Shown here: one piece after another, positions 6,669 to 58,064 of the stretch
Position numbering within the stretch: the first letter of the stretch is position 1
Layout of the letters: every line of letters starts with the position of its first letter
Assembly (NCBI GenBank): GCA_910588015.1
Contig: CAJUOK010000003.1
Location: 48,193 to 112,192 of the forward strand
DNA length: 64,000 nucleotides
Source: an uncultured Christensenellaceae bacterium
Lineage (GTDB): Bacteria > Bacillota > Clostridia > Christensenellales > UBA3700
Reading direction: 5' to 3'
Program-made: the position numbers and the translations under genes
The notes under the pieces: model-generated
The model's input: only the letters and a program-made list of their open reading frames with translations
What the model was told of the DNA's origin: nothing
Database searches by the model: none

Positions 6669-6692
6669 ATTTAACTCCTTATATTTATGAAT

Positions 6693-7064: not shown

Positions 7065-7073
7065 AATCTCTCC

Positions 7074-8501
7074 TTATTGCAAAAAATCTATCTCGAGTAT
7101 CGGCGGTCTTATCTCTTCGCGCATATTGTCGGAACGAATATAGAATACGAATTTGTCAGACTTGACGTATATATTTACTCTGTTTTCCGTAGGCGACAGG
7201 ATAAATTCGCGCCGCTCCCCGTTTGCCATTATTCCAAGCACGTACTGACAGCAAGCGCTGTATTCCACCGCTCTCACGACTTTAAAAATCGACGGTCTGT
7301 CAAAGTCTATCTCGCCGCTCTGCCAGTATTTTTGATACGGCGCGCCGAAATAAAGTCCGCTGCCGTCCAACTGAACGGGCGAAGCGCAATCTTGCGAAAG
7401 TCCTATGACTTTTCCCTCTCCGTAAGCCCCCACCGTCTTGAGGTCGTAGAGAGATATTCCGCGCATAAATTCCACAGATTTTTCGGCTATGTCCAATATC
7501 AAAATTGTGTTGTTGGCGCGACTTTGCGAAAACACTCCGTAGTCGCACTCTTTCTCGTCTGTAAACGACATTATATAGCGACCGTGGGCGTAACACGCCG
7601 ACGCGTCTTTGAATCCGCCGTCGAACAAACCGTCAACTCCGACGTTGATTTTCGTCACGGCATATCCGTCGAAAAGATATATCCCGTCTTGGCTTGCAAA
7701 GGCTATGTATTCGCCGCATTCTTTGACCGAATCGGCAAATATCTTCCCTCCCGACGCATATACTTTCTTCATAGAAAACTGCGTTTGGTCGGCAAATGCC
7801 GTCAACCTGTAAATGCCGTAATCGCAAAAGATATAGAGATAATTTTCAAAGCTCTTGACGGTGTTGACGCTGCCCAAAGAACCGTCGAAATTTATGTAGC
7901 CGCCTTCTTCCAGTGAAACGTTCCAATTATAAGGGTCGAAATCGTCGCTGAATCTCAAAGAATTTCGCTTTCCCTCGACGACGGCGTATATTCTCTCGTA
8001 ATGAACGCACATATCCAGTATGCGCGCGTCGGCTTGAACGTCGACCAACTCTCCGTCGGCAAGAGCTTTGAGTCCCTTCTCTCCCGAAAGCAAGAGCAAG
8101 TCTTTATCTTCGTAAAGATAATTGACTCCCACGTCGAATATTCCGTCGGTCTCTATATGCTTCCATTGAGTCTCTCCGCAAACCGTATATTCCAATCCCC
8201 CTCGGTGAGACAGCGCAAAAGCCGTTTTGAGTTGTCCGCCCAAGTCGACTTTGGTAACAAAAAGCCTTTTTTTGCCTTCGACTGACGGCATCGGCGGAAT
8301 CGCCGTTTCGTCGACTTCCAACGCGCTTATGCCCAACGGATTGATTAGAATTCCGTTTTTGAATTTAAAATTATACGCGCAATCTACGTAATCGCAAGGC
8401 AGATTTCTCGACGCCTTTGTTTCGTCGAAGCCCTTGAACCCGGACAGCAAAACTCTCTTTCGCCGAGGCTTGGCAAGAGCGTAATTTTTGTCGTAAAACA
8501 T
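7074..8501 (-). CDS. Hypothetical beta-rich phage structural-like protein (475 aa); possible receptor-binding or tail-fibre protein.
   Basis: Repeated G-x-Y-x-F-D-G-like segments (YINFDGSLG, YLFDGYAV, GLFDGGFKD). Lies between a holin pair and small phage-like ORFs. No domain recognised with certainty. Confidence 0.35.
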   Translation of the reverse strand: MFYDKNYALAKPRRKRVLLSGFKGFDETKASRNLPCDYVDCAYNFKFKNGILINPLGISALEVDETAIPPMPSVEGKKRLFVTKVDLGGQLKTAFALSHRGGLEYTVCGETQWKHIETDGIFDVGVNYLYEDKDLLLLSGEKGLKALADGELVDVQADARILDMCVHYERIYAVVEGKRNSLRFSDDFDPYNWNVSLEEGGYINFDGSLGSVNTVKSFENYLYIFCDYGIYRLTAFADQTQFSMKKVYASGGKIFADSVKECGEYIAFASQDGIYLFDGYAVTKINVGVDGLFDGGFKDASACYAHGRYIMSFTDEKECDYGVFSQSRANNTILILDIAEKSVEFMRGISLYDLKTVGAYGEGKVIGLSQDCASPVQLDGSGLYFGAPYQKYWQSGEIDFDRPSIFKVVRAVEYSACCQYVLGIMANGERREFILSPTENRVNIYVKSDKFVFYIRSDNMREEIRPPILEIDFLQ

Positions 8502-20911: not shown

Positions 20912-21565
20912 ATGGCAAACGAAATAAAAAGCACAACCCCTGACAAAACCGATAACCTTGATGCAACCGAGATTGAACTAGTCAATAAATTTAACGAAAT
21001 AGCAAGAACCCCACAATTATTTTTTTCAGCAGATACCTCGTCCGAACGGGCAAAGAAAATCGCACAACACAAAGTGTGGTTGAGTAGCATCCGTCACGAG
21101 TTCCCTAGCCCCGCCACTCATTTTAAGGTCGGTGTTTATATTCGTTATTTCAACCAAACCAAGTACGATGATTACTTGGAAACCCATAAGGCTATGTTTA
21201 TGGACGCCATCTCGCTCTGCCCCAACTGGGAGTTCGTTGGCTACTACATTGATGAAGGATCAACTGCACCCAATATGGAAACCGCTGCCGAATGGTCTCG
21301 GCTTCTCAACGATGCCACGGAAGGAAAGGTTGATTTAATCATCACCCAAAAAGTCTCCAATGTATCAAAGAAAATTCACGAAGTTACCCTTTGCGCAAGA
21401 TTGCTTGCTGCAATGGAACACCCCGTTGGTATCTACTTCCTTTCCGAAGATATTTATACCTTGGCTTCGTATTATCAACACGATTTGAGAGATACATTCT
21501 TTTTACCCAATAACGACACGGAGGCGTTGCCCGAAGGAACAGATAAAAAAGGCTTACTGAAATGA
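20912..21565 (+). CDS. Resolvase-catalytic-domain paralog lacking the catalytic serine; predicted inactive.
   Basis: KVGVYIRYFNQTKYDDY...CPNWEFVGYYIDEGS...GKVDLIITQKVSNVSK aligns with the next gene (RVGIYVRVSTDDVRQ...HPNWTLIKIYPDEGISG...GKLDLIITKSVSRFARN). The motif Ser is replaced by Phe and the SRFAR motif is lost. ATGA overlap with the recombinase start. Confidence 0.55.
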   Translation: MANEIKSTTPDKTDNLDATEIELVNKFNEIARTPQLFFSADTSSERAKKIAQHKVWLSSIRHEFPSPATHFKVGVYIRYFNQTKYDDYLETHKAMFMDAISLCPNWEFVGYYIDEGSTAPNMETAAEWSRLLNDATEGKVDLIITQKVSNVSKKIHEVTLCARLLAAMEHPVGIYFLSEDIYTLASYYQHDLRDTFFLPNNDTEALPEGTDKKGLLK

Positions 21566-23469
21566 TAGATACCCAAAGAAAAGAAGAACGAGAACGGAAA
21601 AAAGATAAAACCCGTAAACGAATGCACGTCGAGATTGACCCCGAGAATTATGAGTACACCCCGGCGAAAAAAGCTATCGATTATTACGATAATAACACAC
21701 CCCAGCGTGTAGGAATTTACGTCCGTGTTTCAACCGATGATGTCAGACAAACCACCTCTTTTGAATTGCAAAAACAATATTATGAGGAATTCGTCCAGAA
21801 GCATCCAAATTGGACGCTCATTAAAATATACCCCGATGAAGGTATAAGCGGTACTTCCCTCCGCCATCGTGATCAGTTCAATCAAATGATTTCAGACAGT
21901 CGAGCGGGAAAACTCGACCTTATAATCACAAAGAGCGTTTCCCGTTTTGCAAGAAATGTCGTTGACTGTATTGGATTGCCCCGCGACCTTGCGGAGCTGA
22001 AACCACCTGTCGGCGTTTTCTTTGAGTCCGAAGCAATCTTCTCGCTCAATGATGATTCACAAATGGCATTGTCTTTCGTTGCTACTATGGCGGAAGAAGA
22101 ATCGCATACCCGTAGCCGCAGTATGGAAACCTCTCTCCGTATGCGATTAGACCACGGTATTCCCCTCACGCCCAAATTGCTCGGTTATATGCACGATGAA
22201 GATGGCAACCTCATAATCAACCCCGAGGAAGCCCCCACAGTCAAGCTCGCTTTTTATATGTATCTTTACGGATATTCCACGCAGCAAATTGCGGACACTT
22301 TCAATGAGCTTCAGCGCAAATCATACCTTGGAAATGTCAAATGGACATCAAGCGGAATTGTGCAGATTTTAAGAAACGAACGGCACTGCGGTGATGTAAT
22401 CACAAGAAAAACTTTCACACCAAACTACCGCGACCACAAGTCAGTGCGAAACCGCGGAGAACGTCCTCAAAGCACATACCGCAAGCATCACGAAGGAATT
22501 GTATCAAGAGATGATTTCATTGCTGTGCAACGGATGTTGGATAACGCCAAGTACCGCAATAAATCATTTCTGCCAGAACTGCGTGTCATTGAAAGCGGCA
22601 TATTGAAAGGCTTTGTGGTAATCAATCCTAGATGGGCAGGGTTCAAAGAGCAAGATTATTATGAAGCAGCGCAAAGCGTGTACAAGCCTAGCAACGAACA
22701 GTCCGATACACTTGAACTTCCCCCGGCAGAAATACCTATCCCCATTGAAGCAGGAGACTTTGATTTGCGAGGCTTTGAAATAACCCGTTCAGAGTTCTTT
22801 GATAGCAACCAACGCCCCAGCATTACATTTGCGGAAAAGAAGATAAAATTCAGCACAGACTGCGTTCGCAAATTCGGTAACAACAACTATGTCGAACTTC
22901 TCATCAACCCTATTGAAAAGAAATTTGCCGTAAGAACCACAACCAAGGAAAATCGTCAAGCGGTTATCTGCTCACAGTTAGATGCAAGAAAATACCTACC
23001 AAAGACAATATCCGCTTCCGCTTTCAGCGATACCATCTTTTCAATTTTCGGTTGGAACCCCGAATGCAAATACCGCATCATCGGTTCACTTTACGAAGAA
23101 GGCAACCAAATCGCCTATATCTTCGACACCGACAATTCCGAGATTTTTTTTAAGTCTTATGTGTTAACAAGCCAGGAAGCAAACGAAGCTGGCGGTAAAA
23201 CAGGTATCCAACCTTATACTCCTTCTGGGAAACGCATCCGTGCAATACCGCAAGAATGGACGAACTCGTTCGGTAAACCCTACTACCAACACGAACAGAC
23301 TCTCGCTGCGTTAGCCGCACAAAGTGAAGCCGATTGGCAAATCCGAATGGAAGGACAGCTCGTTGAGACGGGCAGAAAAATAAATGTGACTGGCTTTGAA
23401 GATTTGAAGCAGTACATAAACCAAGAATTAAATGGCACACTGCCACAGGAGGTAAACCCTAATGAGTGA
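21562..23469 (+). CDS. Large serine recombinase (635 aa) with an extra C-terminal domain (recombinase D).
   Basis: VRVSTDD catalytic motif, KSVSRFARN, recombinase domain; C-terminal about 230 aa homologous to the downstream ORF. Confidence 0.8.
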   Translation: MIDTQRKEERERKKDKTRKRMHVEIDPENYEYTPAKKAIDYYDNNTPQRVGIYVRVSTDDVRQTTSFELQKQYYEEFVQKHPNWTLIKIYPDEGISGTSLRHRDQFNQMISDSRAGKLDLIITKSVSRFARNVVDCIGLPRDLAELKPPVGVFFESEAIFSLNDDSQMALSFVATMAEEESHTRSRSMETSLRMRLDHGIPLTPKLLGYMHDEDGNLIINPEEAPTVKLAFYMYLYGYSTQQIADTFNELQRKSYLGNVKWTSSGIVQILRNERHCGDVITRKTFTPNYRDHKSVRNRGERPQSTYRKHHEGIVSRDDFIAVQRMLDNAKYRNKSFLPELRVIESGILKGFVVINPRWAGFKEQDYYEAAQSVYKPSNEQSDTLELPPAEIPIPIEAGDFDLRGFEITRSEFFDSNQRPSITFAEKKIKFSTDCVRKFGNNNYVELLINPIEKKFAVRTTTKENRQAVICSQLDARKYLPKTISASAFSDTIFSIFGWNPECKYRIIGSLYEEGNQIAYIFDTDNSEIFFKSYVLTSQEANEAGGKTGIQPYTPSGKRIRAIPQEWTNSFGKPYYQHEQTLAALAAQSEADWQIRMEGQLVETGRKINVTGFEDLKQYINQELNGTLPQEVNPNE

Positions 23470-26590: not shown

Positions 26591-28114
26591 CTATTTCTTT
26601 CCCCAGACCTTCTCATAAACCACTTCGTCTATCTCATCCTCCTTGTTGTGATAGTAATAAGTTTTGACCTTGGCAACTTGCCCGTTTGTCAATAAAAACT
26701 CAAAGTTCTCTCTGCCATAAATTGTTATCTTCTTGACAACTGCCTTGAAGATTTCAGGATCGAACTCCGTCAACTCGGTTGGTCGCATAATAACCTTGTT
26801 ATATCTTCGTAGGTCGTTTTCGGCTTCGATATTCATAGCATTTGTACGCAGCAGTTCCTTTCGCCTATCTTCCGCTCTGACGATTTGATTCAACAGTCGG
26901 TTATACTCGCCCTCCACAGGCCCCTCCAACAGCCCCTTGGCTTGAAGTTGAAGGTATGTGCGTTCCTGTGCAAGAAGCCTATCCAACTCGGCGTTAAACG
27001 CCACCAGTTCGCCCGACAAAGGCATCTCTACCAACCGCCGTTTTGTCCCTCGTAAGTCATTGAAAATCCTTATAAAAATGTTCTGCAATGTCTGCAACCG
27101 AACGCTAGGACTTTCACATTTTCGGAAACGCTCTTCATCGTGTCCACCGCAGACAAATCGATATTGCTGTCCATTTGTGAAACGCCTTGTGTAAGCGTGT
27201 CCGCACTTACCACACCGAATTGGAACTCCTTCAAGTGGGTTGTCCCCTTTCGGCTGAAAGACATCTACTTTCGTTTGCTTTTGCCTTACTTCATTTGCTC
27301 TTTCCCAAAGCTCCCTACTCACAATAGGCTCATGGTGGTTTTCAACATAGTATTGAGTTATCTGCCCCGTATTCTTTACCGCTCGACCATTCAGCAAGAC
27401 TCGCTTTTCCATCAAGCAGTCCCCTTTATACTTCTCATTCTTGATATAGTAAAGTATCGTTGAAGGCTTGAATGTTTTCCCCGTTGAGGTTCGTATGCCT
27501 TCTCGGTTCAGCTTTTGGCAAATAAGCGTGGAATGTCCCGTATCCGCATACTCTTCAAATATTCGTTTAATAATAGGCGCTTGAACTGGGTCGGGTACAA
27601 GTTCACCATACTCTAACTTATAGCCGTAGGGTGTGTTAGGGTTTAGTATCATCATCCCCTTTTCATACCTACGCTGAAACCCCCATCGTACCGATTCGGA
27701 AACATCCTCCGCTTCTTCCTGTGCCACGTGTGCCATTGTTACGAGTATGATATTATTCCTATCCTTAAGGGTATCAATGTTTTCTTGCTCGAAATAAACG
27801 GATACTTTTAGTTCTGTCAGCCGAGCGATGGCTCTCACGATGTCAAGCGTGTTCCTTCCAAATCGTTTGATTGACTTGCAGAGTATTCGATCTACAAGTC
27901 CCAGTTCACAATCGGTCAGCATTTGCAAGAAAGCCTCACGCCGATTCAAGTACCTACCGCTTATTCCGTTATCGACGTATATTCCGCAGTTAACCATATG
28001 CGGAGTCGTATCCATTACCTCGTTGAAGTGCCGAATTTGCGATTCCAGACTGACCGTTTGGTCTTCTGTACTAACTCTAACATACGCTGCCGTTCGATAT
28101 CGTTGTTCGCTCAT
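26591..28114 (-). CDS. Large serine recombinase C (507 aa), paralog of A.
   Basis: AAYVRVSTEDQ, KSIKRFGRN, zinc-ribbon recombinase domain (CGKCGH...C), C-terminal coiled coil. Confidence 0.8.
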   Translation of the reverse strand: MSEQRYRTAAYVRVSTEDQTVSLESQIRHFNEVMDTTPHMVNCGIYVDNGISGRYLNRREAFLQMLTDCELGLVDRILCKSIKRFGRNTLDIVRAIARLTELKVSVYFEQENIDTLKDRNNIILVTMAHVAQEEAEDVSESVRWGFQRRYEKGMMILNPNTPYGYKLEYGELVPDPVQAPIIKRIFEEYADTGHSTLICQKLNREGIRTSTGKTFKPSTILYYIKNEKYKGDCLMEKRVLLNGRAVKNTGQITQYYVENHHEPIVSRELWERANEVRQKQTKVDVFQPKGDNPLEGVPIRCGKCGHAYTRRFTNGQQYRFVCGGHDEERFRKCESPSVRLQTLQNIFIRIFNDLRGTKRRLVEMPLSGELVAFNAELDRLLAQERTYLQLQAKGLLEGPVEGEYNRLLNQIVRAEDRRKELLRTNAMNIEAENDLRRYNKVIMRPTELTEFDPEIFKAVVKKITIYGRENFEFLLTNGQVAKVKTYYYHNKEDEIDEVVYEKVWGKK

Positions 28115-28141
28115 TTCTACCTCCTATTTTTGGTATGACAC

Positions 28142-28170
28142 ACATTACCAAAATCACGCCATATAGTCCA
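28142..28170 (-). promoter_or_regulatory. Promoter of recombinase C: CGCTGGACT-N17-TAATGT.
   Basis: Same architecture as five other promoters in the window. Confidence 0.45.
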
Positions 28171-28238
28171 GCGAATTGCCCCAAACAAGCGAAAAGAGCA
28201 GACAGCATTTTGCCATCTGCCCTTCGCTATCAAACGCC

Positions 28239-29852
28239 TCATTCGATTGAATCGGTTATTGTGATGCCGCAACCGAAATCATAGGTTAATTCCTTTCCGT
28301 CAACTGTAACTCGGTTTACAATTTTGCGGAACATATCCCCATCAAACTCCGTCAGTTTTCCTTTCTCTGCAACCATATCCCATAACGCCTGGAATCGGTC
28401 ATTCGTATGTTCAAGGTCAACTACTTGCAGCGAACGCTTTTTCTGCTCTTGCTTTAGTGCTTCTATTTCGGTGATGAGCTGTTCTCTTTCACGCTCCCCG
28501 CCAATAAGGTCTTCGGCTGTTTGAGCAGTTTTAACCGCCTTGACAAGCTGTCTTTCCTTGGAAGCTATCTTCTTTGCAAGTTCATCGTTCGCTTGGTCAG
28601 CAAGCCGTTCGGTCAGCGTTTCTTGAATGCTCTCGGTTATTTTCTTGACCATTCCTTCCTTATCTTCGATGAGCATATTGACCACTCGAACGAAGGAATC
28701 GTACAGCTCCGATTCTTTGACCGCTAACTGTGTGCATACCGAGTTCCCATTCAGTTTGTGGTTTGAGCAAGTCCAAGTTTTTATATACTTATCACCGCAT
28801 TGATACCCGTGCCTACGGAAAATGCAACCGCATTGATAGCAGTACACCTTGCTCGATAAAGGATACTTTGAAGAATAACCGCCCCTACCCGATTTAGTGC
28901 AAGACCGTAAGCTACGGCGGTATTCCATTTCACGCTTTACCCTTTCGAACATCTCATCGCTGATTATTGGCTCGTGGTCATCTTCGACATAGTATTGCTG
29001 CGAGTCGGCAGATGCTGCCCGCTTCTTTTGAACCCAAGGTCTTACGATTGTTTTCTGCAGGAGGGCATCGCCTATGTACTTTTCATTCTGCAACATCCCT
29101 TCTATAGTGCTTTCGTCCCATCTATCCAATCCAGAAGGAGACTTGATGTTCCGCCGCTTCAATTCCTCACTTATCAGTCTGAAACTCAACCCCGAGAGGT
29201 ATAGCTCGAATATGAGTCGTACCACTTCCGCTTGCTCTTTGTTGATAACATACTCGTGGTTGAGGACATCATATCCATAGGTCTTTGCTTTTCTTACAAA
29301 CCCTTGCTCGTTTCTGCGTTGGATACCCCAATTCACGCTATCGCTCAAGCTGTCTGATTCTTCCTGGGCGATTGATGCGTACATTGTCAGCATAAAGTTG
29401 GTTCGCTTATCATCTTGCAGACTGTTGAGCTTTTCCTTTTCAAACACCACGGGGATACGTTTCTCTCGCAACTGCTCTATGATGGTCAAACTGTCCAGCA
29501 CATTTCGAGCGAAACGGCTGACCGACTTGACGAGTATCATATCTATCTTTCCGTCCAGCGCATCTTTTATCATCTCACGAAACTTCGCCCTCTTTTTCAT
29601 ACTTCGTCCCGAGATGCCTTCATCAGCATAAACGCCAACCATCTCCCAGTTGGGGTTGCTTAAAATGAGCCTTGTGTAATACTCCATTTGGGACTTGAAA
29701 CTCGTCTGTTGTTCTTCTCTGCCCGTGGATACCCTGGCATAGGCTGCAACTTTCTTTTTTTGCATTATTATGGGCGAATCATCATCCACAAACAATCGTC
29801 TTGAGTTTGTTGCAGGGATTACCCTTATTTTTCTTTCATCTTTCATCAGCAC
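28239..29852 (-). CDS. Large serine recombinase B (about 510-537 aa), TnpX/TndX-like subfamily, related to D.
   Basis: AAYARVSTGREEQ, KSVSRFARN; start overlaps the end of A. Confidence 0.8.
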   Translation of the reverse strand: MLMKDERKIRVIPATNSRRLFVDDDSPIIMQKKKVAAYARVSTGREEQQTSFKSQMEYYTRLILSNPNWEMVGVYADEGISGRSMKKRAKFREMIKDALDGKIDMILVKSVSRFARNVLDSLTIIEQLREKRIPVVFEKEKLNSLQDDKRTNFMLTMYASIAQEESDSLSDSVNWGIQRRNEQGFVRKAKTYGYDVLNHEYVINKEQAEVVRLIFELYLSGLSFRLISEELKRRNIKSPSGLDRWDESTIEGMLQNEKYIGDALLQKTIVRPWVQKKRAASADSQQYYVEDDHEPIISDEMFERVKREMEYRRSLRSCTKSGRGGYSSKYPLSSKVYCYQCGCIFRRHGYQCGDKYIKTWTCSNHKLNGNSVCTQLAVKESELYDSFVRVVNMLIEDKEGMVKKITESIQETLTERLADQANDELAKKIASKERQLVKAVKTAQTAEDLIGGEREREQLITEIEALKQEQKKRSLQVVDLEHTNDRFQALWDMVAEKGKLTEFDGDMFRKIVNRVTVDGKELTYDFGCGITITDSIE

Positions 29853-31384
29853 ACCTCCGTAACTGCTTTTATGTCAATAGATTGTATTTCATCTTCGCTT
29901 GTTGCCCAGTAGATGATACTCACATATGCTACCTCGCCCGAAGCCAGGTGGAATGCAAGGTGTTCTCTGTCCACTACAACGATTCGGCGTACTATCTGCT
30001 CGAACACTTTTTCATCGAACTCGGTCAGTTTGCCAGTCCGCATTACCGCAGAATTGTAAACCTTCAAATCGTTTTGAGCCTTCACGTTTTGTCCGTTGGT
30101 CTCCAACATAGCCTTCTTCTGTTCTTCTGCCTTGACGATGCGGTTGAGCAGTTTTCTGTACTCTTCCTCAATCTCACCGTGAAGCAATCCCCTAGCTTGG
30201 AGCTGAAGGTATGTCTTTTCTTGGTTGAGCATTCGTGTAATCTCGTTATCGAGTTCTCGAACCTCATCTGTTACTTGCATCTCCATCAAGGTCTTTCGCT
30301 TGCCTTCTATCATATTAAAGATTGCAACGAACACCCGCTCGAGTGTTTCCAACTTGACACTCTCGCTTCTGCAAGCATTCATTCCTCGGCTGCTTTTAAG
30401 GTAGCAACCATACCTTGTTTTCTTATCAGACCGCTTTATTCGTTGAAAGTTATGTCCGCACTTTCCGCACACGATTTTTCCCTTAAACGGGTCGAACTCT
30501 CTGTTCTCGGCTCGAACATACTCCGATGTCTTATGCCTTTCTATCATCCGTTGGCAAGTATCCCATAGCTCTCGGCTAACAATCGGTTCGTGGTCGTTCT
30601 CGACATAGTATTGTTGAGCTTCGCCCATATTCTTTATTTTCTTGCCATCAGCCACCACATACTTTTGGAGCATCGCATCTCCCTTGTACTTTTCATTTTT
30701 GATTATATAAAGGATTGTGCTTGCCAAGAACTGCCGTCCGTGCGCTGTGGTATATCCATCCTTATTTAATCGTCTCGCTATCTCCGCCGTGCCGATTCCC
30801 TTTGCGTAACTCTCATAAATGCGCTTGACGATTTTCGCTTCATCTGGCACGACAACTAATTGCCCATCTTCGTTGAACTTGTACCCGAGAGGTGTATTGG
30901 GGTTGACTATCAACTGCCCTTGCTCGAACCGCTTCTTGAAAGTCCATTTGATTGCTTCGGATTTTTCCTCATATTCCTCTTGCGCTATCTGCGCCATGGT
31001 AACAAGCAGAATATTGTTGCGGTCATTGATGGTATGCAAATTCTCTTGTTCGAAATACACTGGGATGTTCAGCTCTGTCAGCCTTGTAACCGCCCTTATT
31101 GTATCCAAAGTGCATCGTCCAAACCTCTTTATCGATTTGCATAAAATGAAATCAATCTTATGCAACTCCGCATCTTGCATCATCCGCTTGAAGTCCTTTC
31201 TTGCCCCAATGAATCGTCCGCTTATTCCGTTGTCGATGTAGCAACCGCAGTTTACCATTAGCGGGTCTGCATCCATCACTTCATTAAAGTATCGAACTTG
31301 CGATTCCAGGGATACTTCTTGCCCATAGTTTTTGCTGACTCGGCAATAAGCAACCGTTCGTTTTTTTGATTCGTCCATTGGCAT
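29846..31384 (-). CDS. Large serine recombinase A (about 512 aa from ATG 31384; the track GTG start is at 31411).
   Basis: AYCRVSKNYGQE, KSIKRFGRC, CGKCGH zinc ribbon; AGGAGG RBS 5 nt before the ATG at 31382-31384. Confidence 0.8.
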   Translation of the reverse strand: MPMDESKKRTVAYCRVSKNYGQEVSLESQVRYFNEVMDADPLMVNCGCYIDNGISGRFIGARKDFKRMMQDAELHKIDFILCKSIKRFGRCTLDTIRAVTRLTELNIPVYFEQENLHTINDRNNILLVTMAQIAQEEYEEKSEAIKWTFKKRFEQGQLIVNPNTPLGYKFNEDGQLVVVPDEAKIVKRIYESYAKGIGTAEIARRLNKDGYTTAHGRQFLASTILYIIKNEKYKGDAMLQKYVVADGKKIKNMGEAQQYYVENDHEPIVSRELWDTCQRMIERHKTSEYVRAENREFDPFKGKIVCGKCGHNFQRIKRSDKKTRYGCYLKSSRGMNACRSESVKLETLERVFVAIFNMIEGKRKTLMEMQVTDEVRELDNEITRMLNQEKTYLQLQARGLLHGEIEEEYRKLLNRIVKAEEQKKAMLETNGQNVKAQNDLKVYNSAVMRTGKLTEFDEKVFEQIVRRIVVVDREHLAFHLASGEVAYVSIIYWATSEDEIQSIDIKAVTEVC

Positions 31385-31409
31385 ATATCCTCCTTTTTTA
31401 GTATGACAC

Positions 31410-31438
31410 ACATTACCATAGAACCAAAACTATATCCA
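31410..31438 (-). promoter_or_regulatory. Promoter of recombinase A: CGCTGGATAT-N17-TAATGT.
   Basis: Read directly; shares the CTGGA -35 region with the moron-array promoters. Confidence 0.45.
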
Positions 31439-46742: not shown

Positions 46743-48341
46743 TTAAATAAAAATTAGCCCACGGCTGTCATAGATTGATTCGGTTGATGCCCCGTTGCGT
46801 ATTGCTCTGTCCAGAGCCATAACGGTTGCAACCGCTCCGTCTATTTTTTCCGTTGACTTTGATTTGTCCATTTTTATGTTCCCGGCAGGGTCTGTGCGAA
46901 CGCATACATTATCCATCATCCAATGCAGCACTGGCTGACCATTGTGGCGGATTTTCTTGCCAAGCACCAAGTTCATCAGTTCTTTGGTTGCAGGACTCAT
47001 ATCCTTAAACCCCTGCCCAAACGGGATGACAGTGAAACCGAGGTTCTCAAGGTTCTGTGTCATTTGAACTGCACCCCATCGGTCAAAGGCGATTTCCTTT
47101 ATGTTGTATTTCTTGCCAAGCTCATCAATGAAATTCTCGATGAACCCGTAATGGATAACGTTGCCTTCCGTGGTCTGTATATATCCTTGCTGTTCCCAGA
47201 TATCATACGGCACATGGTCTTTTGCAACTCTCCGCTCCAAGTTCTCCTCGGGTATCCAGAAGAACGACAAGATGTAATAATTTTCATCCGTATCCGTTGG
47301 CGGAAACACCAACACAAACGCCGTAATATCGGTTGAGGACGAAAGGTCAAGTCCGCCGTAACACACTCTGCCTTCCAAGCTCTCGGGCGAGAAATCCGCC
47401 TTACACGCCTCCCACTTTTCCATTGGCATCCAACGCACCGCTTGCTTTACCCATTGATTCAATCGCAACTGTCGGAAGGTGTTCTCCTCGGCTGGGTTCT
47501 GCCGCGCCGATTCAAACGCCACTCGAACCTTGTCGATGCCTACTGTTATGCCAAGACTGGGGTTCGCTTTTTTCCATACTTTTGGATCCGTCCAGTCATC
47601 ATTTTCGTCTGCCCCATATATTACGGGATAGAAGGTTGAGTCTAGTTTTCTGCCTAGAATAATGTCCTTGGCTTTTTGGTGTGTTTCGTAGCAGATGGAT
47701 TTTGTATCCGTTCCCGCAGTCGTGATTAAAAAGTACAGCGGTTGCATTCGAGCATCGCCAGAGCCTTTGGTCATAACATCAAACAGCTTTCTGTTCGGTT
47801 GGGTGTGCAACTCATCGAACACAACGCCGTGAATATTGAAACCATGCTTGCTGTACGCTTCCGCCGAAAGAACTTGATAGAAGCTGTTCTTCGGCAGATA
47901 GATTATACGCTTGCTTGCCGTGAGTATCTTGCACCGCTTGTTCAAAGCAGGACACATCCGAATCATATCGGCAGCGACTTCAAAGACAATCGATGCTTGC
48001 CCTCTGTCCGCTGCACAACCATAAACTTCGGCTCGTTCCTCACCATCTCCGCAAGTAAGCAAAAGGGCAACAGCCGCCGCCAACTCGCTCTTGCCCATCT
48101 TCTTCGGTATTTCTATGTACGCAGTATTAAACTGCCGATACCCGTTCGGCTTGATGATTCCAAAAAGGTCTCGAATTATCTGTTCTTGCCAATCGATAAG
48201 TTCAAACGGCTCTCCCGCCCATGTGCCTTTCGTATGACATAGGCACTGTATGAAATTGACCGCATAGTCCGCCGCCGACTTGTCATATACGGAGTCCTTG
48301 GCTTTGAACTTGGTCGGCACATATTTCTTTAGCTTTCTCAA
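46743..48341 (-). CDS. terL: Terminase large subunit.
   Basis: 532 aa; Walker A-like KKMGKS; Terminase_1 pattern; nuclease C-terminal half. Confidence 0.85.
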   Translation of the reverse strand: MRKLKKYVPTKFKAKDSVYDKSAADYAVNFIQCLCHTKGTWAGEPFELIDWQEQIIRDLFGIIKPNGYRQFNTAYIEIPKKMGKSELAAAVALLLTCGDGEERAEVYGCAADRGQASIVFEVAADMIRMCPALNKRCKILTASKRIIYLPKNSFYQVLSAEAYSKHGFNIHGVVFDELHTQPNRKLFDVMTKGSGDARMQPLYFLITTAGTDTKSICYETHQKAKDIILGRKLDSTFYPVIYGADENDDWTDPKVWKKANPSLGITVGIDKVRVAFESARQNPAEENTFRQLRLNQWVKQAVRWMPMEKWEACKADFSPESLEGRVCYGGLDLSSSTDITAFVLVFPPTDTDENYYILSFFWIPEENLERRVAKDHVPYDIWEQQGYIQTTEGNVIHYGFIENFIDELGKKYNIKEIAFDRWGAVQMTQNLENLGFTVIPFGQGFKDMSPATKELMNLVLGKKIRHNGQPVLHWMMDNVCVRTDPAGNIKMDKSKSTEKIDGAVATVMALDRAIRNGASTESIYDSRGLIFI

Positions 48342-50864: not shown

Positions 50865-51245
50865 TTAGAGCTTGTCGGAACAGTAGGTCTTTCCGCTACG
50901 TAGATCGATGAGAATTTCGACATACCTGTCTCGTTCTGAACCTTCGCTGCCAAGAACGCATTCCTCATAGAAGTCGATGGCTTCCTGCCTGTCGTCAAAG
51001 GTGCGGTCTTTGCCGTAGTTGTGGACGATGACATAGTTCAGCTTTTTGCAGATGTCTTCGCCATATGCAACATTCAAACTGCTGCCGTTGTCCCACTTGA
51101 CCATTATTGAGCCGATGTCATCAACCCCTCTCACTGTCCCTTTGGTGCCGATGGGCGGTGCTTGCTCATCTTCCATTTTTTCAAGCACCACCCTTGCCCC
51201 TACAGGAAACTGCTGACGAAGGCTTTCAAGTTCTCTGGTGTTCAT
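50865..51245 (-). CDS. DUF4314-like small protein.
   Basis: GTKGTVRGVDDIGSIMVKWDNGSSL pattern; call from recall. Confidence 0.45.
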   Translation of the reverse strand: MNTRELESLRQQFPVGARVVLEKMEDEQAPPIGTKGTVRGVDDIGSIMVKWDNGSSLNVAYGEDICKKLNYVIVHNYGKDRTFDDRQEAIDFYEECVLGSEGSERDRYVEILIDLRSGKTYCSDKL

Positions 51246-51318: not shown

Positions 51319-53730
51319 TTATGCTTCTTTTTCATAGAGCTTTGCAATTGCTCTCAACACATATTTGACACAAGGTAATGCCACCCCGTTACCCCACAGC
51401 TTATACTCCGCTGCGTCGGAATACGGGTCTTTTATGTACGAAATAATCTGCGACCTGGTCTTCGGTTTTATTGCACTCCCTGTTGTCAAACGATAGGTTT
51501 CAAACACCTCCGTCCAGAACTCTATATCTTCTTCCATAGGTTCTGCGATGCCAAGGTTGCGACACCAATCGCTAGGGAAACCTTGAAGTTTTGCGCATTC
51601 GGTTGGTGTGAGCCTACGCACGGAATAATCCGCGCCGACCATTCCGTTATGATAGCCGGGGCAAGTGCCGTTCAACACGGTGTTCCCCTTGTTCTTCAGC
51701 ACATACCTACCCACATCACGACTTGCGCTAGGATCGAATCCGTAAGGCTCGACAACCGCCCCCGGACCTTTCGCCATAAGCGGAGGTTCGAGTTCTTCTT
51801 CAAAGGACGGTTTGAACTTTGCGTTTGTACCTTGGTTGAAAGCATCACGCCCCACCCCATAGCTCGGTGCGTTTATGACATTGGGGTCTTTGTAATCCCT
51901 AGCCATAAGCGTAGGCGATTTCTCTTTCTCTACATCAGTGTAGCTTCCCGTTGTCATGCAGTAAACGGCAGGTTCACCACCGTGCGTACAAGTCAAGGTC
52001 GGTGCCTGGTTTTTTGGAACATTGCAAGCCGACTTCCCTCCGCCTTGGTCTACTGCGTAAACTTCATCGCTACTGTCGGAAGGGACGTGTTCTTCCACCA
52101 CGGCAATTCCGCCTTGGTTACAAGTGGGGTTTCCGCCGTTCCCGTCAAGCGTTCTCGAAGTTTCCGCTTCGTAGACTCCGCTGTTAGGGTTGCTCGACTT
52201 CATTGAGTTGCTGTCCTTTGCGCAAATGCCAAAGGTGCGCTGAATCACGCAGTTGAAGTTGTCCTTGTCGGGCATCCGTTGATTGCCACCTGCGTTCTGC
52301 TTTGTGAGCGTGGGCGAAATTTGTCCACCATCCCAATTGCAAGGTTCAAAGAGCGTCTGGTCGTTATTGCAAGCAAGCGTAGCCGATTTGTCTTTTTGAA
52401 TCAACGGCCCCTTGCCACCACCTTCACAGCCACTGCGGATTTTCATCAGAAGCGGAACACTGTTTTTTCTATTTTCAGAATCGACCACAAAAGGCTGATT
52501 GTTTCCACCCATACCATAAGTCGATGCTACTGTAGGTGCAACTTTTAACGGCCCCCTATATCTTGTGTCTTGACTGTGATTCTCATAAACCTCGGGTAGC
52601 TCATTATCAGTTTGTTCTTCGTTTAAAACAAGCGGAACATTCCCTCCGCCTGTTCCCATTCGAGAAGTGAGCGTTTGAACTTTGCCATCCTCTGCAATTT
52701 TTACTCGGCTGTCCGTAGGATGGTTTTCCAATGCCACCGCTGCCGGGACTTTCCCCGCTCGTATCGTGGGTGATGTTTCTTCTTCGTAGCCAATGCTCCT
52801 GGACTGCGCTGAATGCTCGGTATTGAAACCCGCCGCCATAACACACGGAGGATGGTGCGCTTCTGCGCGAAGTGCCGCAACCTTGTCTTTGGTTACGCCC
52901 ATTCGGCTTCCGCCTTGGTCGTTGAGAACCACTCCGTTTCTGCCAGAGGACATTCCGCAGTTCACACCGAGCGTTGCTTCAACATCGCCCGTTACGCTTC
53001 CGTTATACCCATCGAAGCCTGCCGCTCGAGCGCAAGTTTCAGCACCTCTGGCAGTTCCTTCCCTCGTATCGCTGCTCTCCGCAAAATCCCTTGACACGCC
53101 TTCGGACTCAAATAGTATTTTGCCTGCACATTCGCTTCCAAAATCTGCGACAAGGTAGATTCTGCGACGTCTTTGAGGGACTCCGAAGTATTGCGCATCG
53201 ATTGTGCGCCAGGCGAGAGAGTAACCGTTTCCCACGATTTCTCCCGCATAAGTCCACTTCCCGTCTGCAGGTTCAGGTATAAGTATTTCTGGTTCTTTAA
53301 CGGAGCAGACTGCTTCGAGAACCGAGCGGAAGTCTTGTCCCTTGTTGGAGCTGAATGCTCCGGGGACGTTTTCCCAAACAATGAACCTTGGATATTTTCC
53401 ATTTGTTTTACTCCTCATTTCTTTGATGATGCGTATGGCTTGGTAGAAAAGGTTTGACCGCTCTCCGTTTTCCAAACCCGCACGTTTTCCCGCAACAGAT
53501 AAATCTTGGCAAGGCGAACCGAAAGTGATTATGTCCACGGGTTCAACCTCGCCACCATCTATCTTGGAAACATCCCCGTAGTGCTTCACATTGGGGAAGT
53601 GCTTATTCGTTACGGCAATCGCAAACGGCTCGATTTCGGACTTCCACTTGGGTTCAATGCCGCAAAGCACTCCCCCAAGCGGAAAGCCACCCGAGCCATC
53701 AAACAGACTGCCCAGTGTTAACTTCTTCAT
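51319..53730 (-). CDS. DNA (cytosine-5)-methyltransferase, unusually long (803 aa) with an extended multi-TRD variable region.
   Basis: Motif I LFDGSGGF, IV GSPCQDLS, ENV (IVWENVPG), IX-X RRLTPTECAKLQGFP. About 550 aa between ENV and motif IX with Gly-rich linkers and repeated (P/S)TL(T) elements. Confidence 0.85.
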   Translation of the reverse strand: MKKLTLGSLFDGSGGFPLGGVLCGIEPKWKSEIEPFAIAVTNKHFPNVKHYGDVSKIDGGEVEPVDIITFGSPCQDLSVAGKRAGLENGERSNLFYQAIRIIKEMRSKTNGKYPRFIVWENVPGAFSSNKGQDFRSVLEAVCSVKEPEILIPEPADGKWTYAGEIVGNGYSLAWRTIDAQYFGVPQRRRRIYLVADFGSECAGKILFESEGVSRDFAESSDTREGTARGAETCARAAGFDGYNGSVTGDVEATLGVNCGMSSGRNGVVLNDQGGSRMGVTKDKVAALRAEAHHPPCVMAAGFNTEHSAQSRSIGYEEETSPTIRAGKVPAAVALENHPTDSRVKIAEDGKVQTLTSRMGTGGGNVPLVLNEEQTDNELPEVYENHSQDTRYRGPLKVAPTVASTYGMGGNNQPFVVDSENRKNSVPLLMKIRSGCEGGGKGPLIQKDKSATLACNNDQTLFEPCNWDGGQISPTLTKQNAGGNQRMPDKDNFNCVIQRTFGICAKDSNSMKSSNPNSGVYEAETSRTLDGNGGNPTCNQGGIAVVEEHVPSDSSDEVYAVDQGGGKSACNVPKNQAPTLTCTHGGEPAVYCMTTGSYTDVEKEKSPTLMARDYKDPNVINAPSYGVGRDAFNQGTNAKFKPSFEEELEPPLMAKGPGAVVEPYGFDPSASRDVGRYVLKNKGNTVLNGTCPGYHNGMVGADYSVRRLTPTECAKLQGFPSDWCRNLGIAEPMEEDIEFWTEVFETYRLTTGSAIKPKTRSQIISYIKDPYSDAAEYKLWGNGVALPCVKYVLRAIAKLYEKEA

Positions 53731-54991
53731 TTTCGTTTAACTCCTTCACGAGTTCCTTGTAAGGTATCTGCTGTCCGCCACGGATGCAGTAAACGTTCTC
53801 GGCATCGTTGGTGTTCTCCACATACCTGCGCAAGATGACCGATGCGTACTTTTCGTCAAGTTCCATCGTGTAGCAAATGCGGTTAGAAAGTTCGCAAGCC
53901 ATAAGCGTAGAACCACTCCCACCAAAGGTATCCACCACGATTGCGTTTTCCTGCGTTGAGTTCTTCAACGGATAGGAAAGCAAATCAAGCGGTTTACTGG
54001 TGGGATGGTTCTCGTTGCGCTTCGGCTTTTTGAAGTTCCAAATCGTAGTCTGCTTTCTGTCGGAATACCAACTGTGCTTGCCGTTTTTAAGGAAGCCGTA
54101 CAGCACAGGCTCGTGCTGCCATTGATAGTCACTGCGCCCAAGAACGAGCGAGTCCTTAACCCATATGCAGCACCCCGCTAGGTGGAAGCCTGCGTTGGAG
54201 AATGCGTTACGGAAATTCAAACCTTCGGTGTCAGCGTGGAAAACATATCCCGCCGCCCCCGGTTCTGCGTGTGCGACCATATTCTTGAAAGCCGCAAGCA
54301 AGAAGTTGTAAAACTCCTCGTTCTTGAGCGAGTCGTTCTGTATTTTCAGTCCGCTCGATGATGTGAACGATACTCCGTAGGGCGGGTCGGTAAGGATAAG
54401 GTTTGCCTTCTTCCCGTCCATCAGAAGGTTGACATCGGCTTCGTTGGTTGCATCGCCGCAGACAAGTCTGTGCCTTCCGACAACCCACACATCACCACGC
54501 TCAACGAAGGATGCCTTCTCGAGTGCTTCCGTAAGGTCATAGTCATCGTCTTCCACTTCGGCTTTAACGTCCGCAAAAAAGTCTGCGAGTTCCTTTTCGT
54601 CAAAACCCGTAAGACCAAGGTCGAAGTTGAGACCTTCCAACTCCTGCAATTCCACACGCAAGAGTTCTTCATCCCAACCCGCATCAAGCGCCATTCGGTT
54701 GTCCGCCAAAATGTATGCTTTCTTTTGCGCTTCGGTGAGATGGTCAACGAACACGCACGGTACTTCTTTGATGCCTTCCGCTTTCGCCGCCATAACTCTG
54801 CCGTGTCCTGCTATGATGGTCAAATCCCTATCAACGATGACTGGGTTAATGAAGCCGAACTCACGCAGCGAAGAACGCAGTTTCAAAATCTGCTCCTGGC
54901 TGTGGGTTCTGGCATTGTTCGCATACGGCACGAGCTTATCGGTTGCGACAAGCGTGAGTTCGGTAGTCGTATTCATTACACCAACCCCCAC
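53699..54991 (-). CDS. ParB-N-terminal nuclease domain fused to a DNA N6-adenine/N4-cytosine methyltransferase.
   Basis: N-terminal ParBc (IIAGHGR); MTase DPPY motif and SAM-binding region. Confidence 0.8.
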   Translation of the reverse strand: MGVGVMNTTTELTLVATDKLVPYANNARTHSQEQILKLRSSLREFGFINPVIVDRDLTIIAGHGRVMAAKAEGIKEVPCVFVDHLTEAQKKAYILADNRMALDAGWDEELLRVELQELEGLNFDLGLTGFDEKELADFFADVKAEVEDDDYDLTEALEKASFVERGDVWVVGRHRLVCGDATNEADVNLLMDGKKANLILTDPPYGVSFTSSSGLKIQNDSLKNEEFYNFLLAAFKNMVAHAEPGAAGYVFHADTEGLNFRNAFSNAGFHLAGCCIWVKDSLVLGRSDYQWQHEPVLYGFLKNGKHSWYSDRKQTTIWNFKKPKRNENHPTSKPLDLLSYPLKNSTQENAIVVDTFGGSGSTLMACELSNRICYTMELDEKYASVILRRYVENTNDAENVYCIRGGQQIPYKELVKELNENEEVNTGQSV

Positions 54992-55758
54992 TCTGCAAAC
55001 TTCTCGAAACCGCCAAGGTCGAAGATGAACTCCCTAGCAATCTCCACGATTTCGTTATAAGGTTTTCCGTCTATGTACTCGTCCCCGATTGCACAGCACA
55101 GTTCCACAGGTACTCCCGTTTCCTGTGCTTTAATGAATGCATACACATTCACGCTCACATCCGCCTTCGACAAGTCCTTACCATGCAAGCCACCACCCGT
55201 TACCGAGTCCGCCATATCCGAGCCGAGCTTGCGGTTGGTTGCGCCCGTGTCAACATCAGTGCCACCAAACCAATCTCCAAGCGGATTGACCTCTGCCGTT
55301 TTATACTTGCTTGAAAGTTCCGTGCTTCTCGCTTGGCTTTGGCAAATAATGAGCCTTTCGCCATTCAGGATGTATTTCCCGTCAGTGGGATACGCAGCAT
55401 AGATTTCTCTTGCCACTCTTGCGAGTTCTTTCTGTTCCTTTGTAAGCGGTACACCCCTGAATATGCCGTTGTCACCGCAGCGGAAACCATCCGCCTGGTT
55501 CTCTGCGAGATGCTTGTCTTGCGGCACTTCAACATAATCCACAGCGACATTACCCGCAATGCGTTTTACGAGTTCCTTGACTTCCGACGTTGCCAAGCAC
55601 ACCGAACTTTCTGCGATTATATGGCACTTGCCGTGTCCGATAAGGACTTCAACCGCAATCTTGGGATTGTCCTGGTTCTTGTACGCAAGGTCAACTATCG
55701 CTCCCGCAATTCGGTCTGCCACCTTATCGGGATGACTAGGGTTTACTTTTTCAAACAT
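54976..55758 (-). CDS. metK-like: Truncated MetK-like S-adenosylmethionine synthetase homolog (260 aa).
   Basis: SHPDKVADRIAGAIVD versus MetK GHPDKIADQISDAVLD; DTGATNRK...GGGLHGKDLSKADVS versus MetK DCGLTGRK...GGGAFSGKDPSKVDRS. About 120 aa shorter than canonical MetK. Confidence 0.65.
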   Translation of the reverse strand: MFEKVNPSHPDKVADRIAGAIVDLAYKNQDNPKIAVEVLIGHGKCHIIAESSVCLATSEVKELVKRIAGNVAVDYVEVPQDKHLAENQADGFRCGDNGIFRGVPLTKEQKELARVAREIYAAYPTDGKYILNGERLIICQSQARSTELSSKYKTAEVNPLGDWFGGTDVDTGATNRKLGSDMADSVTGGGLHGKDLSKADVSVNVYAFIKAQETGVPVELCCAIGDEYIDGKPYNEIVEIAREFIFDLGGFEKFAEWGLV

Positions 55759-55760
55759 TG

Positions 55761-56303
55761 TTACTTCCTCCTGGTGTTAAGTAATCTTTCCATCAAATCG
55801 TCCTGTGGGTTCGCGCCCGAATAATCAACCGTGCAGTTGTCCTTGACGATTTGATAAATTTCATTCCATTGCCTTATGGCTTGGTTCATGTACTGAATGC
55901 CAATATTAATGAACGGCGAAGGTATCGGCTTACCCGTGGTAGGATGCCTACCGAGCATACCGAGTTGGTTCGTCATCTCCTCGCACTGAATCCATCTCGC
56001 AGCGCAGACAGCGTATCGCTCAATAAGTTGCGGAGACACAATTGCCGTGCATCCTATCTTCTTCAACCACTGCCAAGTTTCAGTGTAGATTTCCTTGGCT
56101 TGCAGTTCACCACCGTCTCTCTGCTTTGCGGAAAGGAACTCGTGGGGTTCGGGCATCTCCACACCTTCTGTGTCGGGAATATCCAGAACCTTAATTGTTT
56201 TGCCACTGCCTTCTGCAAGTTTATCAATGGCAGGCTTCGGCTTTCTGCCAGCACCATTTCTTGCACCGCCTTTTCCGCCGATATTATTCGATTTTGTTGG
56301 CAC
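55761..56303 (-). CDS. terS: Terminase small subunit (P27-family-like).
   Basis: GGARNGAGRKPK N-terminus and position; from recall. Confidence 0.55.
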   Translation of the reverse strand: MPTKSNNIGGKGGARNGAGRKPKPAIDKLAEGSGKTIKVLDIPDTEGVEMPEPHEFLSAKQRDGGELQAKEIYTETWQWLKKIGCTAIVSPQLIERYAVCAARWIQCEEMTNQLGMLGRHPTTGKPIPSPFINIGIQYMNQAIRQWNEIYQIVKDNCTVDYSGANPQDDLMERLLNTRRK

Positions 56304-56473: not shown

Positions 56474-56869
56474 CTAACGCTCGGAAGGATGACGGTCACC
56501 AAGTTCGATATGGATTTTATTGTGGCAACTTCTGCACAAACTCATTAAGTTGCTGTCTGCATTCGAGCCGCCTCGGTTGACGGGTAAAATGTGGTGAACT
56601 TCTTCCACAGGTGTCAGCCGCCCTTCTGCAAGGCATCTCTCACAAAGCGGATGCGCTTTGACGTACCTTGCACGGATGCGCTTCCATTCTCGTCCATACT
56701 TCTTGTTGTGGTCGGAACTGCGCTGATATTTGTTGTAGCTGTTCACCGCCTGGCTCTTGTGCTTTGCACAGTAGGTTTCGTCCGTAAGATTTGGACAGCC
56801 AGGGAAGGCGCACGGTTTTTTCGGTTTGTGCGGCATACTGCCCTCCTTCATAGTTCGCGAAAAAAACAT
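56474..56869 (-). CDS. HNH endonuclease.
   Basis: CxxC ... HHILPVNRGGSNADSNLMSLCRSCHNKIH. Confidence 0.75.
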   Translation of the reverse strand: MFFSRTMKEGSMPHKPKKPCAFPGCPNLTDETYCAKHKSQAVNSYNKYQRSSDHNKKYGREWKRIRARYVKAHPLCERCLAEGRLTPVEEVHHILPVNRGGSNADSNLMSLCRSCHNKIHIELGDRHPSER

Positions 56870-57447: not shown

Positions 57448-57771
57448 TTAAGTTATCTTCTTCAATACCCTTGTGTAATCTTTCTTGCCATTGAACACAG
57501 CGTTGATATAGACCTTCGCTAAAGACTCATCAACCGTATAGAAAATCAAATACTCTTTATGTACCAGAAACCTATACCCTGAACTCGACAAAGTCCTATC
57601 CTTTGGTATCGCCCCTGACATAGGAAAATCCACAAGTCTTGCACACTGGTCCGTTAGTTCTCTGACAAATCGCTTTGCAATTTCTTTATTCTTTGACTCT
57701 TCTGCGATATAAACTGCAATGTCTCTTAAATCCGATTTCGCTGTATCGGTGAATTCTATCGTATATTTCAT
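57448..57771 (-). CDS. ParE/RelE-family toxin.
   Basis: 107 aa; KYTIEFTDTAKSDLRDIAVYI...; downstream of and overlapping a Phd/YefM gene. Confidence 0.65.
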   Translation of the reverse strand: MKYTIEFTDTAKSDLRDIAVYIAEESKNKEIAKRFVRELTDQCARLVDFPMSGAIPKDRTLSSSGYRFLVHKEYLIFYTVDESLAKVYINAVFNGKKDYTRVLKKIT

Positions 57772-58064
57772 AATTCGATTTTATCAATATCCCTCAAGAT
57801 ATCTTCCACCGCCGAACTCATCGGTTGCACTCTGCCAAGTTTGATATCATCTTGCGCTTGAGCCAAGTGTGCGTAAAGTTGCAATCTTTCTTGCATCTCT
57901 GCTATTTGACGCTGTTGTTCCAAAAAGTCATTATGACTCATCAGCACAGTATCTTCACGCCCATTGACGGTTATCGCCACTGGATGCTGATGCGCTATTG
58001 CCGCTATCTGTGCATAGTTCGTCCTTATATCCTTTGAAGGTCTAATCGAGATTTCTCCGCTCAT
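57768..58064 (-). CDS. Phd/YefM-family antitoxin.
   Basis: 98 aa; IRTNYAQIAAIAHQHPVAITVNGREDTVLMSHNDF. Confidence 0.65.
   Translation of the reverse strand: MSGEISIRPSKDIRTNYAQIAAIAHQHPVAITVNGREDTVLMSHNDFLEQQRQIAEMQERLQLYAHLAQAQDDIKLGRVQPMSSAVEDILRDIDKIEL

Follow-up and report, generated by a model that had tools for sequence, protein, structure and literature searches.

The window analysed here, the full 64,000-nt stretch of contig CAJUOK010000003.1 from an uncultured Christensenellaceae bacterium, carries a gene for a short relative of MetK, the S-adenosylmethionine (SAM) synthetase or methionine adenosyltransferase (MAT). The gene lies in the packaging module of a prophage and is followed by two DNA methyltransferase (MTase) genes. 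All coordinates refer to window positions, and the features of the region are, in the order of transcription:

56474..56869, minus strand: HNH endonuclease gene (Pfam HNH 3.3e-13; phrog_144 3e-37)
55761..56303, minus strand: terminase small subunit (TerS) gene (phrog_83 7.8e-32; Pfam Terminase_4 1e-4, under the gathering cutoff)
55767..55772, minus strand: Shine-Dalgarno sequence AGGAGG of the MetK-like gene, 8 nt before the ATG
54976..55758, minus strand: gene for a predicted compact SAM synthetase of the MetK/MAT family, an intact open reading frame (ORF) of 260 codons
53699..54976, minus strand: DNA methyltransferase gene with ParB-N and N6_N4 domains (ParB-MTase; Pfam N6_N4_Mtase 1e-22, ParB_N 1.7e-6; phrog_498 1e-179; PADLOC MTase_II 2.7e-156)
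51319..53730, minus strand: C5-cytosine DNA methyltransferase gene of the orphan type, 803 aa (C5-MTase; Pfam DNA_methylase 7.8e-42 in three stretches; best PADLOC match oMTase PDLC03715, "orphan MTase", 916 bits in four stretches)
50865..51245, minus strand: gene for a DUF4314 protein, downstream of the MTases (Pfam DUF4314 2.3e-30)
46743..48341, minus strand: terminase large subunit (TerL) gene (TerL_nuclease 7.8e-51, TerL_ATPase 2.2e-18)

Transcription runs from HNH through TerS, the MetK-like gene and the ParB-MTase to the C5-MTase. As every gene here is encoded on the minus strand, the MetK-like gene comes upstream of both MTases in transcription and does not lie directly downstream of them, where the initial annotation had placed it. 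The TerS stop codon (TAA, 55763-55761) is separated by 2 nt from the MetK-like ATG (55758-55756), and inspection of the sequence shows that the purine run AGGAGGAAG (55772-55764) touches this stop codon. The probable ATG of the ParB-MTase (54976-54974) overlaps the MetK-like stop codon in the arrangement TAATG, and the C5-MTase in turn overlaps the 3' end of the ParB-MTase by 32 nt. Judged from these three junctions, the MetK-like gene is predicted to be translationally coupled to both MTases. TerL closes the terminase block, and the SAM and methylation genes are inserted between the two terminase subunits. The position of the HNH gene ahead of the terminase genes is kept in related loci, and a DUF4314 domain after the MTases is also found in the module of the phi29854/phi1207.3 type.

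The C5-MTase is about twice the usual size. The conserved MTase motifs at its two ends flank a variable region of ~450 aa that contains at least five S-x-T-[LI] units (residues 320, 449, 472, 525, and 605) and similar Gly-rich repeats. It looks like a multispecific enzyme with many tandem target-recognition domains, which, if true, would mean a high demand for SAM and offers a lead.

The relationship of the 260-aa protein to MetK, proposed in the initial annotation, is confirmed by a match to Pfam S-AdoMet_synt_N (PF00438, 4e-11) and by SAM synthetase sequences in the Protein Data Bank (PDB), many of which align with residues 3-70; weaker PDB matches pair residues 147-207 with MetK 242-306. 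The signature blocks named in that annotation are present as variants. They read SHPDK (not GHPDK), DTGATNRK (with TNRK in place of TGRK), and GGGLHGKDLSKAD, which is one residue short of MetK's GGGAFSGKDPSKVD. The PROSITE-type MetK signatures, which we take to be GAGDQG-x3-GY and GGGAFSGKD, are not matched literally; the protein has RCGDNGIFRGV and GGGLHGKD at these places and keeps the key Asp, Gly, and Lys positions. Almost its whole length (residues 1-259) aligns with positions 4-336 of the 346-position profile phrog_1569 (E = 4.9e-70), a phage family filed under "unknown function". The label "hypothetical protein" is attached to the short form in 23 of 25 phage records, the other two being one S-adenosylmethionine synthetase and one unannotated entry.

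With 260 aa, the protein falls below the canonical MetK length of ~380-400 aa. The initial annotation had described it as truncated and as lacking about 120 central residues, a view that the alignment and the structural model correct. In a profile comparison (hhalign) of the family with seven canonical MetKs (E. coli MetK and six phage long forms), residues 1-260 of the query align with residues 7-361 of E. coli MetK over 259 columns (probability 99.4%, E = 6e-21). The missing residues are distributed over 16 separate deletions of 1-17 aa each, 96 residues together in the hhalign parse, and the termini are trimmed by six residues at the N terminus and 23 at the C terminus compared to the E. 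coli enzyme. An AlphaFold2 monomer model that was built from a 30-sequence family alignment is compact and confident (mean predicted local distance difference test score (pLDDT) 95.7, predicted template modeling score (pTM) 0.93, every residue at or above 70). All three pseudo-repeat domains are kept as beta-alpha-beta-beta-alpha-beta units with the flat sheet face of the MAT fold, and the losses fall on loops, helix ends, and hairpin tips. The protein is thus predicted to be a compacted MAT core that has shed ~125 residues of surface parts.

The set of canonical catalytic residues is complete. The roles of the MetK residues are presumed here to be those given by Komoto et al. 2004 and Taylor & Markham 2000. 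Numbered first in E. coli MetK and then in the window protein, the identical residues are:

His14 and H9, Asp16 and D11, Lys17 and K12
Glu42 and E37, Glu55 and E50, Gln98 and Q80, Asp118 and D96
Asp163 and D126, Lys165 and K128, Asp238 and D170, Arg244 and R176
Lys245 and K177, Lys265 and K194, Lys269 and K198, Asp271 and D200

Two positions are changed, Ile102 of the gating loop (L84) and the adenine-stacking Phe230 (W163). The loss of metal- or ATP-binding residues that the initial annotation had considered is not seen. The active site of MATs is formed at the dimer interface. Glu55, Gln98, Asp118, Asp238, and Lys245, which in MetK we take to come from the partner subunit, are among those conserved in the window protein, and their conservation is consistent with a MetK-like dimer.

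These features extend through the family. In 128 full-length relatives taken from viral and genomic loci, the catalytic and ligand-binding positions are 99-100% conserved, all 14 core residues are intact in 127 of the 128, and the length is 257-293 aa with a mode of 260. A word-indexed database search returned at least 8000 relatives, the best 120 of which are 80-99% identical over practically all 260 aa; an exhaustive search of representatives gave 1344 clusters at 50% identity with E <= 1e-3 and 228 with E <= 1e-30. At least 579 viral contigs in IMG/VR encode a relative, so that the short form is clearly conserved in other phages. Compared with its closest relative (dS 0.67), the gene has a ratio of nonsynonymous to synonymous substitution rates (dN/dS) of 0.044; comparisons with more distant relatives give 0.11-0.12, with pairs involving L010 (indel) and L011 and L013 (saturated dS) left out. 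These values point to strong purifying selection on the compact MetK.

Several homologs deviate from this pattern. In P0121 (582 aa), an intein of ~320 aa sits exactly in the triphosphate-binding loop, at GGGL|HGKD; its ends read CLSGDS... (N-terminal) and ...ITGN|C (C-terminal), and the +1 Cys replaces the conserved His. Inteins tend to occupy functionally critical motifs, and the insertion site was for this reason counted in favor of an active enzyme. The divergent representatives P0141, P0225, P0179, and P0217 have lost catalytic residues (HPDK is changed to TPNK or NINK, and TNRK and GKD are degenerate) and may be inactive pseudo-enzyme offshoots. Five longer relatives (P0224, P0227, P0229, P0247, and P0249; 346-415 aa) owe their extra length to an insertion of ~80-110 aa after the first beta-hairpin. 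The insertion is charged and predicted to be helical, and it looks like a lineage-specific extra domain, not like a retained segment of canonical MetK.

The neighborhood of the gene is also conserved. Neighbors were counted in the 80 most similar viral loci, with only evaluable cases included. TerS is directly upstream of the short form in 59 of 73 loci, the ParB-MTase directly downstream in 56 of 69 (and at most 4 kb away in 66 of 69), and the C5-MTase follows in 36 of 62. Since these loci come from related phages, a wider set was examined, in which 33 of 42 evaluable genome loci from diverse hosts contain a homolog of the ParB-MTase or the C5-MTase at varying positions. A 45%-identical member from a phage with a Mu-like portal is followed by ParB_N and N6_N4 MTase, and in a phage from a Bacteroidales metagenome-assembled genome (MAG; L133) an MTase fragment with an NPPF motif is directly upstream of the short form. 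The linkage recurs in phages whose backbones are unrelated, with the genes ordered differently, and is therefore more than inherited synteny. Scans of viral contigs with single divergent proteins found no loci for P0215 and P0174 and only two for P0181.

Two further viral loci show other surroundings. On IMG/VR contig 3300028591_006755 (L089, 1433-6620), the short form is found amid genes for an SNF2 helicase, a class I SAM-dependent methyltransferase, a dUTPase, and a ThyA-like or dNMP hydroxymethylase-like protein, a nucleotide-modification neighborhood unlike that with the ParB-MTase. The Mycoplasmopsis phage vB_Mfe_PMF329 (L004, 3980-5188) encodes a divergent MAT-domain protein of ~400 aa that is 33% identical to E. 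coli MetK. This gene is directly upstream of a DNA methyltransferase, another independent pairing of MetK and MTase, and it contains in-frame TGA codons under translation table 11, as genetic code 4 would give.

Full-length MetKs of phages occupy the same niche as the short form. They are 345-392 aa long, ~47% identical to E. coli MetK, and present in 138 phage records. The long forms phi1207.3 orf29 and phi29854_0030 (345-353 aa), Javan630_0042 (387 aa), and that of Faecalibacterium phage FP_Brigit (392 aa) are encoded beside a ParB-MTase and/or a C5-MTase, in or next to the packaging module. In phi1207.3 and phi29854, the order is MetK, HNH, helix-turn-helix protein (HTH), ParB-MTase, and C5-MTase. 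In Javan630, the 387-aa MetK is located in a slot between a TerS-like gene and the ParB-MTase, followed by a "virulence-related" gene and TerL; the short form fills this slot in Streptococcus constellatus Javan105, in Gardnerella phage vB_Gva_AB1, and in the window. The Terrisporobacter prophage TPDSL_ph1 carries the short form too. Given the shared slot, the long and short forms look interchangeable. All three Pfam domains are recognized in the long forms, which are ordinary MetKs, whereas the short form is a separate and much more divergent family. For phi1207.3, orf29 has been suggested as methyl donor for Orf33 (PMC4260502), a role that matches the one proposed here for the short form.

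Relatives of the gene are also found on bacterial chromosomes. In the non-phage context of a Christensenellaceae MAG (L094), the short gene is located between RNase J/APH and McsB/ClpC; elsewhere it adjoins hrcA-grpE-dnaK (L123), an aquaporin and an FtsK-like gene (L105), or envelope genes (L095). A SAM-off S-box leader classically controls metK and methionine genes in Firmicutes. In four MAGs, an Rfam scan detected aptamers of this element (SAM-I, RF00162) that exceed the gathering score of 44.4 bits, lie on the strand of the short gene, and immediately precede it:

L102, 5769-5861: SAM-I leader, 74.1 bits
L105, 5849-5932: SAM-I leader, 68.2 bits
L095, 5856-5939: SAM-I leader, 60.2 bits
L094, 5845-5931: SAM-I leader, 51.7 bits

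The four MAGs belong to Christensenellaceae (JAISHI01, Hm464_bin17), Bacilli (JAFUTR01, RGIG4816), Oscillospiraceae (JAZUFG01), and Erysipelotrichaceae (CACZGA01, RUG12586). An intrinsic terminator with its T-run and, after it, a ribosome-binding site (RBS) complete the classical leader behind every aptamer, and a promoter-like site is present upstream of the aptamer in three of the four (none was found for L094). No SAM-I element was found in 14 phage-context loci or in the window. The proteins encoded behind these leaders share 45-70% identity with that of the window. In a neighbor-joining tree without support values, the chromosomal copies do not form one clade and are interleaved with the viral copies, a pattern implying that the gene has passed repeatedly between phages and chromosomes. 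Cells with such leaders thus treat the short form as a gene of the SAM regulon, and with riboswitch control and an intact MetK active site combined, SAM synthesis is by far the simplest reading of its function.

Other chromosomal loci have a different organization. In three Ruminococcus MAGs (L109, L113, and L114; ~5995-8188), the surroundings of the gene are also non-phage and no riboswitch precedes it; its start is 19 nt past a gene for a YhgE-like membrane protein, and a 458-aa radical-SAM enzyme is encoded directly after it. L113 additionally carries a group II intron at 93-583. The variant P0174 from a Christensenellaceae MAG was considered as a case of housekeeping context conserved across species. 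A genome scan found it in one genome only, so its synteny provides no evidence of vertical inheritance.

Taken at a probability of roughly 0.68, the short gene encodes an active compact SAM synthetase (EC 2.5.1.6) that supplies the two DNA methyltransferases of the phage. The enzyme would use the retained His, Asp, and Lys residues for binding of triphosphate, Mg2+, and K+, together with the methionine-binding and gating-loop residues, and would presumably act as a dimer, perhaps without assembling into a tetramer. It would be transcribed and translated together with the packaging genes and both MTases. Late in the lytic cycle, the enzyme would make SAM from ATP and methionine at the time and place where the MTases methylate many progeny genomes before packaging. 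Methylation of the progeny, and hence their protection from restriction in the next host, would thereby be freed from the small, feedback-repressed SAM pool of the host. The initial annotation had offered such a phage-borne supply of SAM for protective methylation as one of two options, and it is the one we favor, given the intact predicted active site, the coupling to the MTases, the recurrence of MTase neighbors, the long MetK in the same slot of sister phages, and the SAM-riboswitch control of the cellular copies.

Several observations weigh against this assignment. The protein scores 49.5 bits with the metK equivalog model TIGR01034, which has a cutoff of 309.4, and only the N-terminal PF00438 of the Pfam trio PF00438, PF02772, and PF02773 is significant (PF02773 is on record for one 293-aa relative). 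Three family-specific substitutions are invariant or nearly so (Ser186 to Cys, Phe230 to Trp, and Gly243 to Asn), and the P-loop is family-wide one residue shorter and has a conserved His (GGGLHGKD versus GGGAFSGKD); these changes leave some room for altered kinetics or specificity. In nine of the 42 diverse loci (~20%), no MTase was detected with the probes used, and the link to the MTases is one of synteny alone. Since genes for the biosynthesis and transport of methionine are likewise under S-box control, the leader indicates membership in the SAM/methionine regulon, not MAT activity. In the open-access literature, no paper was found on a MAT of ~260 aa, on its structure or activity, or on the biochemistry of any short-form member.

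Some of these points fit an active SAM synthetase that would serve as a general auxiliary metabolic gene and maintain or redirect host metabolism that depends on SAM (polyamines, quorum signals, radical-SAM enzymes, methionine and sulfur flux) during infection or lysogeny. Viral metK, with conserved motifs and dN/dS < 1, has been read as such a gene for organosulfur metabolism (10.1101/2021.01.05.425418), and deletion of a prophage metK in S. agalactiae altered host growth and biofilm, although this metK is a long form (PMC8223999). The loci without a detectable MTase neighbor and the radical-SAM enzyme beside the short gene in the Ruminococcus MAGs agree with this role. It is nevertheless unlikely for the window gene, which is coupled to two MTases inside a packaging operon, as expected of lytic-phase expression, and whose association with MTases recurs across unrelated phage backbones with different gene orders.

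An improbable explanation is a MAT-fold enzyme with altered chemistry, which might use another nucleotide or amino acid as substrate, produce an analogue of SAM that serves some unusual modification of DNA, or work chiefly as a tripolyphosphatase. The near-invariant exchange at the adenine-stacking Phe230, the changes at Ser186 and Gly243, the shortened His-containing loop, and the score far under the equivalog threshold could be accounted for in this way, as could the position of the L089 gene among dUTPase and ThyA-like nucleotide-modification genes. The methionine-, triphosphate-, and metal-contacting residues of MetK are all kept, however, and a riboswitch that senses SAM shuts off the cellular copies, an indication that SAM is the relevant product. 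The neighbors are moreover ordinary SAM-using N6/N4 and C5 MTases.

The second option of the initial annotation, a truncated dominant-negative or altered MetK that modulates host SAM pools, is very hard to reconcile with the data. Such a mimic would form heterodimers with host MetK and lower or redirect SAM, thereby disarming SAM-dependent defenses with an outcome like that of the T3 SAM lyase (SAMase). As the active site spans the dimer interface, incorporation of a divergent subunit might in principle inactivate dimers of the host enzyme; the T3 SAMase itself binds MetK (PMC8406200), and PDB entry 8bb1 is among the structural matches. Yet a poison subunit needs no intact active site, and here all 14 core residues are kept in 127 of 128 relatives, with dN/dS of 0.04-0.12. 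Lowered SAM would starve the two cotranslated MTases of the phage. Chromosomal copies that are regulated like a genuine metK behind an S-box leader and reside beside housekeeping genes are incompatible with a toxic inhibitor, and the MetK-like protein has no match in the PADLOC defense library. The view of the gene as a degraded remnant of a phage metK, also raised in the initial annotation, could appeal to the ~125 residues by which it is shorter than canonical MetK and to the single detected Pfam domain, but it is refuted by the intact ORF with its strong RBS, the confident compact model, the strong purifying selection, the conserved residues, and a length that is conserved across thousands of relatives.

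The surroundings of the packaging operon contain additional features of the prophage. A ParE-toxin/Phd-antitoxin pair (57448-58064, minus strand) separates the replication genes (RusA, DUF1492 sigma-like) from the HNH/terminase module, and a perfect sigma-70 consensus promoter (TTGACA-17-TATAAT) is found at 58122-58094. Three tandem large serine recombinases (507, 537, and 521 aa; Resolvase, Recombinase, and Zn-ribbon domains) lie at the apparent prophage end (26591-31411, minus strand), with a fourth ~3 kb on (21562-23469, plus strand). This unusual number may reflect nested or adjacent mobile elements.

Compared to the canonical MetK (E. coli, 384 aa; PDB 1fug, 7ll3, 5h9u, and 4le5), the window protein is about one-third shorter and 19-26% identical. 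The archaeal-type MAT (Methanocaldococcus, PDB 7p82) is likewise full length with ~400 aa, and the window protein is closer to bacterial MetK (26%). The T3 SAM lyase and the compact MetK are both phage proteins that intervene, or are predicted to intervene, in the SAM economy of the host where restriction-modification is concerned. Their folds and strategies are opposite: the T3 enzyme destroys SAM and inhibits MetK, which stops SAM-dependent defenses of the host (PMC8406200; 10.1101/2023.02.27.530186), whereas the phage in the window has its own MTases and appears to make SAM. The occurrence of phage metK beside a DNA MTase or dcm is already known at the level of annotation, and metK with dcm is recognized as a frequent pair in phages (PMC11283538; 10.1101/2021.01.05.425418; PMC4260502). 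Of the genomes of Ca. Heliusvirales, 58.9% carry K00789 and 67% carry dcm (PMC11283538). No earlier description appears to exist of the compact form or of its cellular copies under riboswitch control, and a search of the open-access literature returned no paper on S-box-controlled short metK genes.

MetK is among the most conserved enzymes and has a nearly constant size. If ~260 residues suffice, the compact form defines a minimal MAT core, which matters for enzymology and for the engineering of MATs for SAM and SAM analogues. For the phages, a common "hypothetical protein" of gut and streptococcal prophages would become part of a self-sufficient methylation cassette, in which donor synthesis and two MTases are expressed with the packaging genes, as a mirror image of SAM destruction by T3. 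More tentatively, and with the odds rather against it, this may be the smallest natural SAM synthetase, evolved in phages with full activity at a protein size reduced by one-third, and transferred repeatedly between phages and Firmicutes of the gut; in certain lineages without cultured members (MAGs of Christensenellaceae, Bacilli, Erysipelotrichaceae, and Oscillospiraceae), the gene would have come under S-box control and may have replaced the canonical metK, a gene that is, to our knowledge, otherwise near-universal. The riboswitch-controlled chromosomal copies suggest an exchange of a core metabolic enzyme from phage to host or from host to phage. The compact form would be of wider significance if it proves fully active or if some bacteria rely on it as their only MAT.

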